Shown piece by piece: positions 47,265 to 50,789 of a stretch of 64,000 nucleotides of DNA; the stretch's first letter is position 1, and the number at the start of each line of letters is the position of its first letter. The notes beneath the pieces were generated by a model. It saw only the letters and a program-made list of their open reading frames with translations. It had not been told where the DNA came from and did not search any database. This stretch comes from Lachnospiraceae bacterium (GTDB lineage Bacteria; Bacillota; Clostridia; Lachnospirales; Lachnospiraceae), in assembly GCA_045627305.1 (NCBI GenBank), contig JAZQNM010000037.1, positions 16,962 to 80,961 of the forward strand, read 5' to 3'. The position numbers and the translations under genes were made by a program.

Positions 47265-47307
47265 AGGAAATCTCCTTACTGTTCTTATTTTTTCGCATAC
47301 ATAATTT

Positions 47308-47336
47308 ATTATAGAAAATTCGGCTGTTTCTGTCAA
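47308..47336 (-). promoter_or_regulatory. Perfect-consensus sigma-A promoter of acn-icd
   Basis: On the minus strand: TTGACA, 17-nt spacer, TATAAT. Confidence 0.75.
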
Positions 47337-47489
47337 TATGTGCGGGAGACCGGATGGCATTTTTCGGAAACTTCTTTTATTGTATTTTGCAGTTGGATAC
47401 TAAGTCTTTTCTGTTCTTGTGCATAACATATAAATATATGGCAAACTTTCTCTGTTTTTAACAATTTTTTGTGAATTTGAAAAAAGAAA

Positions 47490-47518
47490 ATGACAAAGTA
47501 CAAAAAGTATGATATAGT
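47490..47518 (+). promoter_or_regulatory. Putative promoter of the membrane-protein / WYL::HAD operon
   Basis: ATGACA, 17-nt spacer, TGaTATAGT (extended -10). Confidence 0.5.
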
Positions 47519-47532
47519 CTATTTGTGTGATG

Positions 47533-47554
47533 AAACTACAAAATGTTGTAGTTT
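47533..47554 (+). promoter_or_regulatory. Perfect 9-bp inverted repeat just downstream of the promoter (candidate operator or 5' stem-loop)
   Basis: AAACTACAA-AATG-TTGTAGTTT, about +8 to +30 relative to the predicted TSS. Confidence 0.45.
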
Positions 47555-47624
47555 AAGGACATTTTCTTTTTAGAAGAGAATCGATTATTTTCGAATGAAG
47601 TATTGTTATTTTGGAGGATTGGTC

Positions 47625-48422
47625 ATGAGTGTGAATTCGGTGGTAAAACATTCTGTTATGCCGAAGGATATGTATCTGGCTAAGATGTGGAAGAGCGAGA
47701 AGGTTTATATTGGGGAATCCGAATATGAACTTGTGATTTCTCCTGCTGCAAGAAAGAACGGAGCAATTCAGTACCATATTGGTGCTTTTCAAGAAGGTAA
47801 GGTTGTTACCTTTCAGGATTTGAATCAATCTCTGTATGAAGTTACTGTTCAGAAATATATTGATGAGTTGAATGCGAGATTGGCGTCTCTGATTAATCAG
47901 CATGTAAGATGGGTGAATACCGGTAATCATGATATTTATGTTTCCTATGGTACACTGGAGCAGTGGACAGAAGGGAATTCCTTAAAGACTACAGGTATTC
48001 GTATCATTCTTATGGTGAAGAATGTTGAGAATCTTCCTGATACGGAAGAGGTTCTTTTACGGAAACTGATTAAAGGTGAATTGATTGAGTGGATGGAAAC
48101 GGTCCTGAATGATAAGCCGGCGATTACTAAGACGAAAGAGGATTATGCGCATGATATTGTAAGGGTGATGGATACCTCTATGATTCCGCATACGGACCAA
48201 GCCTTTAATTCCCTTCCGATTATGACAATCCTTGCAATGGTTGCATGCGGTCTTGCATTGATTAATATGAAACTGATTTTGTGTCAGATTATTTCCATGG
48301 TTATCAGTGCATATGCCGCTTATCGTGCCTATAAGAAGGATGAGAAACCTTATTTGTATGTAAATCTTGGAATTATGTTGATTTCCGTATATCTGATTTA
48401 TTACGGTACATCCATACAGTAA
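47625..48422 (+). CDS. Hypothetical membrane protein (soluble ~195-aa N-domain plus 3 C-terminal TM helices)
   Basis: ATG after GGAGG. I recognise no family. TM helices are LPIMTILAMVACGLALINM, LILCQIISMVISAYAAYRAY and YLYVNLGIMLISVYLIYYG. A 9-nt gap separates it from the next gene. Confidence 0.6.
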   Translation: MSVNSVVKHSVMPKDMYLAKMWKSEKVYIGESEYELVISPAARKNGAIQYHIGAFQEGKVVTFQDLNQSLYEVTVQKYIDELNARLASLINQHVRWVNTGNHDIYVSYGTLEQWTEGNSLKTTGIRIILMVKNVENLPDTEEVLLRKLIKGELIEWMETVLNDKPAITKTKEDYAHDIVRVMDTSMIPHTDQAFNSLPIMTILAMVACGLALINMKLILCQIISMVISAYAAYRAYKKDEKPYLYVNLGIMLISVYLIYYGTSIQ

Positions 48423-48431
48423 GCTGATTTT

Positions 48432-50036
48432 ATGGCTAAGTCTATCTATCAAAAACTGAAAATATTATATCTCCTTAAGATTTTATGGGAATATACGGAT
48501 GAGAATCATGGTGTCGGTATGGCTGAAATCATTGATAGACTCGCCGAATTCGGAATTGAGGCCGAGCGGAAGAGTATCTACGATGATTTTGAGATGTTGG
48601 ACCATTTTGGATTTGAAGTTTCCAAGAACTATGACGGTCATCGTGTTGTATACTCCCTGATTTCAAGGAATTTTTCTGTCGGGGAGCTGAAACTGCTTGT
48701 AGATGCGGTTCAGTCTTCCCGTTTTTTAACGAGAAAACGTTCTGAGGAATTAACGGAAAAGCTCACGACTCTTCTTAGTGTCTACGACGCATCGGAACTG
48801 GAACGTCAGGTTCAGGTTTCCGGTCGTGTAAAGATGATGAATGAGAACATTTTTGTATGCATTGATACGATTCATGCCGCAATTTCTCAAAATCATCCGA
48901 TTGCATTTGATTATATGGAATGGAATGATAAGCGTCAGCTTACTAAACGCGCAGACGGTAGCAAAAAGCATATCAGCCCGTTTGCACTTGTATGGGACAA
49001 TGAATTCTATTATTTAGTTGCATTTGACCCATTGAAGAATGACCTCAGACATTACCGCGTGGATAAGATGCAGCATGTGGAAATTGAAGACGGCGTTCGG
49101 GAAGGCAGAAATCTTTTGGAAGAGGCTGAAATAGAGACCTATGTTGAACAACGGTTTTCTATGTTCGCCGGAAAGAAACAGGCGATTACGGTAGAGTGCA
49201 CAAAGCCTTTTCTGGGGCCGTTTATCGATCGTTTTGGAGATGATTTACATATTCGAAAGAATGGAGATTTATACCGTCTTAATTTTCATGTGGCGGTTAC
49301 AGAGGTTTTTCTTGGTTGGATTGCCGGGCTTTCTGATAATGTCAGAATAGTGGAACCGCAGTCAGTTGTTGATTCCATGGCGAGTTTCGCGGCGAAACTA
49401 TGTAAGAGGCATGCAAATCGCAGAATTCGAGCTGTGATTCTGGACCTCGGTATGGTTTTGGTTAATTTTCGTTATATGGATTTTATGAAGGAACTCGGTT
49501 TTGATGATGAAACAGCTGGATTCTTTCGGACAAATATCATTCTTTCTGAACTATGGCGTGGACTGGATCGTGCTAAATATACGCAGGATGAGTTGTCTTT
49601 GATTCTGCAGACACAGTATCCGCAATATAAATATGAGATTTCACATTTTTTTGAAGAGATTGAATGGATTGTCGAGGAATACCCGGATGCGGAGAGAATT
49701 GTACGAGAACTGAAGGATAAGGGGTATGAGGTATATATTCTGACGAATTATCCTGAACATATGTATCGGATTCAGAGCCCGAAATGGAAGTTCCTTCCCT
49801 TTACGGACGGAGCGGTTGTTTCTGCGTTTGAGAAAATGTCAAAGCCATCAGAAGCATTTTACCGGTGCCTTCTAAATCGTTACGGTCTGAATCCGGAAGA
49901 ATGTGTTTTTGTAGATGATAGTACGGATAATGTGGAAGCGGCGCAATCAATAGGAATCCACGGTATTGTTGCAGACCATCGCGAAGAAGCCTTCCGGACG
50001 CTTTTCGAGTATCTTCGAATTTGTGGGAAGGAGTGA
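48432..50036 (+). CDS. Fusion: HTH-WYL-WCX transcriptional regulator plus HAD-IA (YihX-like) phosphatase domain
   Basis: N-terminal wHTH (LKILYLLKILWEYTDENHGVGMAEIIDRL), WYL domain (PIAFDY..ISPFALVWDNEFYYLVAF..LRHYRVDKM), and WCX-like segment (VFLGWIAGLSDNVRIVEP). HAD motifs follow: I LDLGMVLV, II ILTN, III SKPS, IV FVDDSTDN. Confidence 0.75.
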   Translation: MAKSIYQKLKILYLLKILWEYTDENHGVGMAEIIDRLAEFGIEAERKSIYDDFEMLDHFGFEVSKNYDGHRVVYSLISRNFSVGELKLLVDAVQSSRFLTRKRSEELTEKLTTLLSVYDASELERQVQVSGRVKMMNENIFVCIDTIHAAISQNHPIAFDYMEWNDKRQLTKRADGSKKHISPFALVWDNEFYYLVAFDPLKNDLRHYRVDKMQHVEIEDGVREGRNLLEEAEIETYVEQRFSMFAGKKQAITVECTKPFLGPFIDRFGDDLHIRKNGDLYRLNFHVAVTEVFLGWIAGLSDNVRIVEPQSVVDSMASFAAKLCKRHANRRIRAVILDLGMVLVNFRYMDFMKELGFDDETAGFFRTNIILSELWRGLDRAKYTQDELSLILQTQYPQYKYEISHFFEEIEWIVEEYPDAERIVRELKDKGYEVYILTNYPEHMYRIQSPKWKFLPFTDGAVVSAFEKMSKPSEAFYRCLLNRYGLNPEECVFVDDSTDNVEAAQSIGIHGIVADHREEAFRTLFEYLRICGKE

Positions 50037-50789
50037 AAAACCGTTCTTTTTTGCCACGGCTACAGATGCCGGATTTTCCCGACTGATGATTGCGAGTATG
50101 GGAGTTTCCCCGATATAAGGTAGCATTCTTGACAGAAATGCTTTTAATGCAGCGGTCATCATCCCTTTGTTTCGATACTTGGGAACAATATAATAGGAGA
50201 TATTGATTGCCATATCAGTAAGTTCGGAATGCTCCAAAGCAATCTGGCCAATGATTTCATCGGTTTCTTTTATACTGAAGCCGTATACAGTATACAGCGG
50301 ATTCATTCGGGCATTTTCCATGTCATAGCAATAGCGCTTATGGAGTTCCTCTTCACTTAGATTTTGCAGACTTTTCGGTAGCAGATATGGCTCTTCCTGC
50401 TGAAGAGCATAAAGCCTTTTATAATCGGCAAATCCTAATCGCATATAGTCGAATTCTCCTGAGAAAAAGGCATAATGTGTTGTCTCGGTTGCATAGTCTG
50501 CGATATCGGATACATCCTCGGGATAAAGTTCCTCAATATCGGTTACCAGTTCTTTGGCTTGCAAATGATTTCCGTTATATTCATAGCCGACAGAACAGCC
50601 TCCTTGCTGTTCCCAAAGCGTCAGAACCTCCTGTACATCACTGAACAGAAGAGTTCCGGGTTCAGAAACTTCCATTCCTTCTTTGTAAGGGAACAGAAGA
50701 AATTCTCCGTCGAGCATATTTTCCTTAAAGAGATTTACAGAATCGGAATCCTTAACCGATTCGCTGAAATGATAAAATATTTTAAGCAT
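49947..50789 (-). CDS. GNAT-family N-acetyltransferase with ~120-aa N-terminal extension
   Basis: GNAT core (IGQIALEH, YYIVPKYRNKGMMTAALKAFL, AKKNGFSL). The 3' end overlaps the convergent WYL::HAD gene by 90 nt. Confidence 0.7.
   Translation of the reverse strand: MLKIFYHFSESVKDSDSVNLFKENMLDGEFLLFPYKEGMEVSEPGTLLFSDVQEVLTLWEQQGGCSVGYEYNGNHLQAKELVTDIEELYPEDVSDIADYATETTHYAFFSGEFDYMRLGFADYKRLYALQQEEPYLLPKSLQNLSEEELHKRYCYDMENARMNPLYTVYGFSIKETDEIIGQIALEHSELTDMAINISYYIVPKYRNKGMMTAALKAFLSRMLPYIGETPILAIISRENPASVAVAKKNGFSLLPTNSKILEKRPEGFFAMVCNNTVDSY

Follow-up and report, generated by a model that had tools for sequence, protein, structure and literature searches.

What might a DNA-binding sensor gain from carrying a phosphatase on the same polypeptide? 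This question is raised by a two-gene locus in a 64,000-nt stretch of DNA from a Lachnospiraceae bacterium (assembly GCA_045627305.1, contig JAZQNM010000037.1, positions 16,962 to 80,961), which we call the window below. The locus comprises the gene of an orphan membrane protein and, directly downstream, a gene whose 534-amino-acid (aa) product joins a regulator made of helix-turn-helix (HTH), WYL and WCX domains to a phosphatase of the HAD-IA type. The answer we propose, to which we give about an even chance, is that the two genes form an autoregulated operon with a bifunctional sensor-enzyme, specific to one sub-group of the Lachnospiraceae and vertically inherited there. The two genes are the following open reading frames (ORFs):

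47625-48422, plus strand: orphan membrane-protein gene, ORF of 265 aa, with GGAGG 8 nt upstream
48432-50036, plus strand: WYL-HAD fusion gene, ORF of 534 aa encoding a winged HTH, WYL, WCX and a YihX-type HAD-IA domain

In the window, 9 nt separate the stop codon of the membrane-protein gene from the WYL-HAD start. A preliminary description of this DNA, made from the sequence alone, had reported this gap behind a 265-aa orphan protein with three transmembrane helices, and both the ORFs and an AlphaFold 2 (AF2) model agree with it. Across the fusion loci the gap measures 6-17 nt. A longer alternative ATG exists for the membrane-protein ORF at 47595.

The WYL-HAD fusion is one continuous protein of a small Lachnospiraceae lineage

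By searching 5.8 billion proteins, we found the same Pfam set (WYL, WCX and HAD) in 19 clusters of 533-553 aa, at identities down to 37%. The only name that NCBI gives to these fusion proteins is 'HAD-IA family hydrolase [Lachnospiraceae]'. Below these clusters came thousands of stand-alone WYL proteins of ~330 aa, with ~45% identity over the N-terminal 60%. A scan with a profile of the HAD part, run on one genome per GTDB species, returned 13 fusion loci, all of them in metagenome-assembled genomes of rumen or gut Lachnospiraceae. In all 13 GTDB species genomes the locus reads aconitase-isocitrate dehydrogenase (acn-icd, minus strand), membrane-protein gene, WYL-HAD. The survey of other genomes proposed in the preliminary description thus found the fusion conserved, with the same neighbours. 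Among 300 genera of the family, each represented by one genome, the full-length fusion was present in the window's genome only.

A frameshift or an assembly artefact, which had been set beforehand as the refuting check, was rejected: the reading frame of the fusion is uninterrupted in the 19 protein clusters and likewise in 13 other independent assemblies at species level. The 16 fusions grouped as one clade when a tree of the WYL part was built (Shimodaira-Hasegawa-like approximate likelihood-ratio support of 97); the fusion therefore has a single origin, and it is confined to a small lineage. No split or loss of the fusion was seen across this clade, which has diverged to 33-38% identity, and its two halves diverge at similar rates. 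Searchable literature held no description of a WYL-HAD fusion, in line with the preliminary description, whose author knew of no regulator-enzyme fusion of this type; the protein is apparently undescribed.

The regulator half has the fold of DriD and PafBC

The N-terminal three fifths of the protein contain the following domains:

48444-48659, plus strand: winged HTH, residues ~5-76 (AF2 secondary structure, Foldseek, invariant columns)
48861-49085, plus strand: WYL domain, residues 144-218 (Pfam PF13280, E 2.3e-12, 47.2 bits against a cutoff of 21.8)
49185-49397, plus strand: WCX dimerisation domain, residues 252-322 (Pfam PF25583, E 1.9e-7, 31.7 bits against a cutoff of 23.9)

The HTH-WYL-WCX plus HAD-IA architecture given in the preliminary description was recovered in full, with WYL, WCX and HAD matched by Pfam and the last also by the NCBIfam model HAD-SF-IA-v3. 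The HTH was recognised by AF2 and Foldseek and not by Pfam, no HTH model of which matched the fusion protein at E<=0.01. In the AF2 model (mean predicted local distance difference test (pLDDT) score 83; predicted template-modelling score (pTM) 0.44), the N-terminus forms a winged helix with helices at 5-21, 30-39 and 46-58 followed by strands at 63-67 and 72-76 (H-H-H-beta-beta). With Foldseek, the N-terminal 325 residues matched full-length DriD and PafBC over ~350 columns, with E down to 1.5e-13, and a profile of the regulator part aligned to the WYL-WCX region of DriD with E 5e-10. The PADLOC WYL model PDLC01457 spans residues 24-311. In the putative recognition helix at 46-58 (RKSIYDDFEML), R46, K47, Y50 and D52 are invariant in the fusions and in the stand-alone relatives. 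The last WCX helix (310-328) is joined to the first HAD strand (334-337) by a linker of ~5 residues.

In DriD, single-stranded DNA (ssDNA) is contacted by Y192, R204, W206 and R207, with Y240 stacking (PMC9186387). Our profile alignment places Y194, R206, Y208, R209 and F245 of the fusion at these positions, F245 being in the linker, and all five are invariant or conservatively kept in the alignments of the fusions and of their stand-alone relatives. Since the equivalents of the ssDNA-contact residues are kept, the WYL pocket looks, judging by its residues, competent for a phosphate-bearing, nucleic-acid-like ligand.

The HAD half keeps the catalytic residues of a YihX-type phosphatase

The C-terminal part of the protein shows these features:

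49425-50009, plus strand: YihX-type HAD-IA domain with C1 cap, residues ~332-526 (Pfam, NCBIfam, AF2/Foldseek, YihX profile)
49443-49445, plus strand: HAD nucleophile D338, in motif I DLGMV

Pfam placed Hydrolase and HAD_2 at residues ~397-513 (E 1e-14 and 3e-12), Hydrolase_like also matching in the C-terminal third, and NCBIfam TIGR01509 (HAD-SF-IA-v3) scored 53 bits against a cutoff of 29.4. In the AF2 model, cap helices at 348-413 lie between the strands at 334-346 and 433-438. The C-terminal ~200 residues matched Escherichia coli YihX in Foldseek with a template-modelling (TM) score of 0.73-0.77 over ~206 columns, and a profile of the HAD part matched the same protein with E 1e-18, both of which agree with the YihX resemblance seen at first. 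Further structural matches were the phosphatase domain of soluble epoxide hydrolase (sEH) and the HAD domain of fungal drimenol synthase.

Across 16 aligned fusions (38-79% identity), the motifs D338-L-G-M-V, T/S438-N439, K471 and D495-D496 are invariant, as are many cap residues, so the four catalytic motifs claimed for the window's protein are intact in its orthologues too. They align with the motifs of YihX. Because the motif I of YihX (IFDLGNV) also has Gly at the usual position of the second Asp, this Gly is a trait shared with YihX and not a sign of decay. Since every catalytic residue is kept, the fused phosphatase is, on sequence grounds, probably active. YihX is named alpha-D-glucose-1-phosphate phosphatase in PDB entries. 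However, the fused HAD scored 38 bits with the YihX equivalog NF006991, far below its cutoff of 295; it is therefore not a YihX orthologue, and the YihX substrate cannot be transferred to it.

In the species-level scan, stand-alone relatives of this HAD amounted to 67 genes, mostly of ~200 aa and with 33-45% identity, and are common in Lachnospiraceae and Oscillospiraceae. The window's genome has no other close copy. Some of the stand-alone relatives (L062, L064, L067, L068, L074, L084, L103 and L111) are extended to 347-476 aa by other C-terminal regions, and this HAD subfamily seems prone to fusion.

In all contexts seen the membrane-protein gene precedes a WYL gene, and the pair predates the fusion

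The AF2 model of the membrane protein (pLDDT 81.8) shows a cytoplasmic alpha/beta domain of ~185 aa at the N-terminus, followed by three transmembrane helices at the C-terminus:

Residues 196-213, 218-237 and 241-264 of the membrane protein: transmembrane helices (AF2)

Neither Pfam nor PADLOC assigns the protein to a family, and NCBIfam gave only a match at chance level, well under the cutoff (17 against 334 bits). For the fold of the soluble domain, the best PDB match was DR_1245, which is not significant (E 0.058, TM score 0.37), and BFVD returned nothing significant. The family is tiny, with 14 matches by a word-based search and 30 by a profile search of 1.84 billion representatives. It also varies fast, as its members share 27-62% identity between loci where aconitase keeps 80-94%. 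Soluble homologues of the cytoplasmic domain, of ~160 aa, exist in metagenomes (P0149-P0158; profile E 6.9e-16 back to the window's gene); none was found in the 399 sampled Clostridia genomes.

Each membrane-protein gene whose context was seen, at 15 fusion loci and at three loci of a related lineage, is immediately followed by a WYL gene. The three latter loci are on further Lachnospiraceae contigs and encode distant homologues of the membrane protein (~18-42% identity among themselves). There, the order is icd-acn (minus strand), a Zip transporter gene, the membrane-protein gene, a stand-alone WYL gene of 333-334 aa and a convergent ABC pair. This WYL protein is 38-39% identical to the N-terminal part of the fusion, and no close YihX-like HAD was found anywhere in the two related-lineage genomes searched. 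Because the related lineage has the same synteny with an unfused WYL and without a close HAD, the membrane-protein/WYL pair is the older unit, and the HAD joined the C-terminus of the regulator later, in one descendant lineage. The related-lineage WYL proteins sit on a long branch, so that the tree does not show whether they are direct sisters of the fusions; the orthology of the pair rests on synteny.

The many other stand-alone WYL relatives of ~330 aa showed no recurrent partner and no adjoining membrane-protein homologue, their neighbours being varied, and k-mer counts revealed no motif common to their upstream regions. Such proteins, with 40-46% identity to the N-terminus of the fusion, occur in well over a third of the sampled Lachnospiraceae genera (loci L014-L042). 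Their neighbours vary and their recognition helix (AERKS.Y.D) is near-invariant, a combination that would suit a regulator with distant targets.

A conserved promoter is followed by an inverted repeat

Upstream of the membrane-protein gene, we identified the following elements:

47490-47518, plus strand: sigma-70-type promoter (consensus scan, 10/12 matches with TG)
47490-47495, plus strand: -35 element ATGACA, followed by a 17-nt spacer
47510-47518, plus strand: extended -10 element TGaTATAGT
47533-47554, no strand assigned: inverted repeat, candidate operator, AAACTACAA-aatg-TTGTAGTTT, with perfect 9-bp arms, at ~+8 to +30

The transcription start is predicted near 47525. The promoter can be recognised at 12 orthologous loci in the form 'ATGACAAA ... 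TGnTATAnT', and the seven closer orthologues do not vary at all from ~-45 to -7. In the leaders of these seven, ~12 variable bases follow position -7 and precede, at a fixed distance, a conserved block at the repeat, of the form (A/T)ACTACAAAAT[GA]T[TG]GTA[GT]TT; nothing further is conserved until the ribosome-binding site. The repeat can be extended to imperfect arms of 16 nt (47526-47561, 81% complementarity). In random sequences with the composition of the 264-nt spacer, a perfect repeat with 9-bp arms has a chance of ~3.8%, and the quality of the repeat on its own is only suggestive.

The 2.3-Mb genome holds one exact copy of the repeat. A search for a regulon, in which two mismatches were allowed, gave 7 matches against 18 for a reversed-pattern control. 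Both the promoter and the 9-bp repeat are bracketed by another inverted repeat, whose perfect 12-nt arms AAAAAGAAAATG / CATTTTCTTTTT at 47481-47492 and 47560-47571 are 67 nt apart; it is A/T-rich and may be due to chance.

A model for the operon and its alternatives

In the model we propose, the strong extended -10 promoter would drive the orphan three-helix membrane protein, and the WYL-HAD gene downstream is probably translationally coupled to it. The DriD/PafBC-like HTH-WYL-WCX factor most likely dimerises through WCX, and the dimer most likely binds the conserved repeat in its own leader, by which it would repress the operon that encodes it; once a phosphate-bearing, nucleic-acid-like ligand occupies the WYL pocket, this repression would be relieved. 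The YihX-type HAD-IA domain, joined to the C-terminus of the regulator in one ancestor by the short linker, would couple the hydrolysis of a small phosphomonoester to regulation, either by removing the inducing ligand (a self-resetting sensor) or by serving as a second metabolic input. The sequences show the domain architecture, the conservation and single origin of the fusion, the greater age of the membrane-protein/WYL pair and the conservation of promoter and repeat; what we infer in the model is that the protein binds DNA at the repeat, with which sign it regulates, that the enzyme is active and any link between its substrate and the ligand. Its most specific form, a self-resetting one-component sensor whose HAD hydrolyses the phosphorylated nucleotide-like molecule bound by the WYL domain, so that turnover sets how long the membrane effector is induced, is a tentative idea that we find rather improbable. 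If true, the substrate of the HAD would reveal a class of ligands other than ssDNA for WYL domains in Firmicutes.

Several observations weigh against the model. The characterised homologues DriD and PafBC are activators and not repressors, and no clear Shine-Dalgarno sequence precedes the WYL-HAD start codon of the window. How the HAD is oriented towards the WYL pocket is not fixed by the AF2 model (pTM 0.44). The neighbours of the stand-alone HADs are uninformative, as few of them recur (a pilin-like gene, purA) and they indicate no pathway. In addition, the sequence of the repeat is kept in the seven closer orthologues only; the distant fusion loci differ there, L003 among them with a palindrome of another sequence at this position. 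Since the putative recognition helix is invariant in all loci, changing operators fit poorly with it.

The repeat could be an RNA feature instead of a DNA site bound by a protein, for example a stabilising 5' hairpin or another leader structure. It is indeed located in the transcribed leader, where the 9-bp hairpin appears in both the minimum-free-energy and the centroid structures (leader z-score -2.1), but its stem is A/U-rich and weak, and the seven orthologues show no compensatory change, as all 12 variant cells break pairs. A role as RNA seems to us unlikely. A riboswitch or another known RNA was rejected, because Rfam gave no meaningful match to the leader. Conservation of the repeat at a fixed distance in seven promoters, its uniqueness in the genome and the missing RNA covariation together favour, as far as sequences can tell, a protein-binding operator at a repressor-type position; the preliminary description had read the perfect 9-bp repeat behind the promoter as a plausible autoregulatory operator.

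The HAD may also be a passenger, an independent enzyme of the housekeeping type that was joined to the regulator by loss of a stop codon and of the spacer; the regulator would then work as an unfused one does, the enzyme having gained co-expression only. The stand-alone HADs of ~200 aa would fit such an origin, as they are common and have unrelated neighbours, never with a WYL or membrane-protein gene nearby. So would the related lineage, with its membrane-protein and WYL genes but no close HAD, and the fused copy may simply supply the enzyme to a genome that has no other close copy. Yet the single ORF and the tight linker of ~5 residues have been kept across the divergent clade, again with no split or loss and with similar rates in both halves, and we consider a passenger somewhat unlikely, although it is the alternative to be taken most seriously. 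Smaller still is the probability we assign to a DNA-damage module of the DriD-didA type, in which the WYL domain would sense ssDNA and activate, the membrane protein would be a damage-induced effector such as a division inhibitor, and the HAD would clean up nucleotides. The ssDNA-sensing activators DriD and PafBC are the closest structural relatives, the equivalents of DriD Y192, R204, W206, R207 and Y240 are kept, and didA encodes a small membrane protein. The known target of DriD, didA, is moreover a cell-division inhibitor (PMC9186387), and the invariant block at ~-45 to -28 could be the site of an activator. However, the only conserved element with dyad symmetry is downstream of the -10 element, where a repressor would bind; the domain of the membrane protein does not resemble any known division inhibitor; and no other copies of the operator are found in the genome, hence no regulon. 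Besides, C1-capped HADs act on small molecules and not on DNA ends. A DriD-didA-like damage module is possible, the fold relationship being its only support. We find it still less probable that the pair is an anti-phage or stress defence module, the framing chosen in the preliminary description, with a BrxR/CapW-like WYL repressor holding back a toxic membrane effector until infection. BREX and CBASS operons are indeed under the control of WYL repressors that bind palindromes, and the orphan membrane protein diverges fast compared with aconitase. But the generic WYL models were all that PADLOC matched, with nothing for either the membrane protein or the neighbours, none of which matches a defence family, and neither a plasmid match nor a viral fold match (BFVD) was obtained. 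Instead, the pair is vertically inherited beside aconitase and isocitrate dehydrogenase, and the synteny on both sides (acn-icd and GNAT/CYTH/DegV/SecDF) holds across the clade, so it is not part of a variable island; the defence framing was therefore dropped as very improbable.

Neighbouring genes

Returning to the proposed autoregulated operon, its locus in the window is flanked by acn-icd on one side and by GNAT, CYTH, DegV and SecDF genes on the other. The acn-icd genes, divergent on the minus strand, lie upstream of the membrane-protein and WYL-HAD genes in 15/15 fusion loci examined, and an insert of ABC and radical-SAM genes is found downstream in only some of them. A plasmid or other mobile origin was rejected, as the locus has no plasmid match and its chromosomal synteny is conserved.

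At its 3' end, the WYL-HAD gene shares 90 nt (49947-50036) with the 3' end of a convergent GNAT gene on the minus strand (49947-50789). The closer orthologous loci show such an overlap too (117 nt in L001, ~81-129 nt in L043-L047), so it is a conserved arrangement and not the result of a miscalled stop. On the other side, the 779-aa aconitase ORF listed for the window is probably overlong at its 5' end (47265-47360): its orthologues are annotated with 746 aa, and the extension contains a perfect TTGACA-17-TATAAT promoter (47336-47308, minus strand). The likely true start is an internal Met ('MITLHEGG'). In the distant fusion loci L003 (4771-5031), L004 (4732-4989) and also L049-L053, an extra hydrophobic ORF of ~85 aa is present between aconitase and the membrane-protein gene, with the conserved promoter downstream of it; the window lacks this ORF.

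Comparison with known systems

To our knowledge, WYL regulators are widespread, and ligands are known for few of them, namely ssDNA for DriD and PafBC. One report gives cyclic di-GMP (c-di-GMP) as the ligand of one Lactiplantibacillus WYL protein (PMC11880434). The work presented here defines a tiny family of orphan membrane proteins, and because their gene always lies directly upstream of a WYL regulator gene in the contexts seen, it suggests that gut and rumen Lachnospiraceae have a WYL-controlled module that had so far gone unrecognised. The practical importance of this is limited, since the clade is small (~13 species genomes, all uncultured) and not yet linked to a phenotype.

DriD of Caulobacter and PafBC of actinobacteria are the best structural matches of the N-terminus of the fusion and share its HTH-WYL-WCX architecture, but their identity to it is only ~16-18% and they carry no enzyme domain. 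DriD binds a 20-bp palindromic site (PMC9186387). Both DriD and PafBC activate multi-gene regulons, whereas here a single candidate site is found, downstream of the -10 element and unique in the genome. The operon as we model it, with a homodimeric WYL regulator that binds an inverted repeat at the promoter of its own gene and lies together with its target genes, resembles those of BrxR and CapW. It differs from them in that no defence genes are near the fusion, PADLOC gave no BrxR or CapW match, and the regulator gene comes last in the operon, a different gene order; nor do BrxR and CapW have a HAD fused to them.

For the enzyme half, YihX (HAD4), the N-terminal phosphatase of sEH and the HAD of drimenol synthase have the same fold, HAD-IA variant 3 with a C1 cap. 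YihX has in common with the fused HAD its set of motifs, including the unusual motif I DLG[NM]V without a second Asp, but the two are only ~20% identical, and here the domain is fused to a transcription factor. Single polypeptides that join DNA binding with catalysis or with the binding of a pathway metabolite are known in BirA, NadR, PutA and the Nudix-derived NrtR. Their folds are unrelated to that of WYL-HAD, and they regulate genes in the pathway of the enzyme, whereas here only the gene of the orphan membrane protein is in view. The intact phosphatase, carried along since the single fusion, is a biochemical handle on this regulator, as the substrate of the enzyme is a candidate for its signal or for a competing input.

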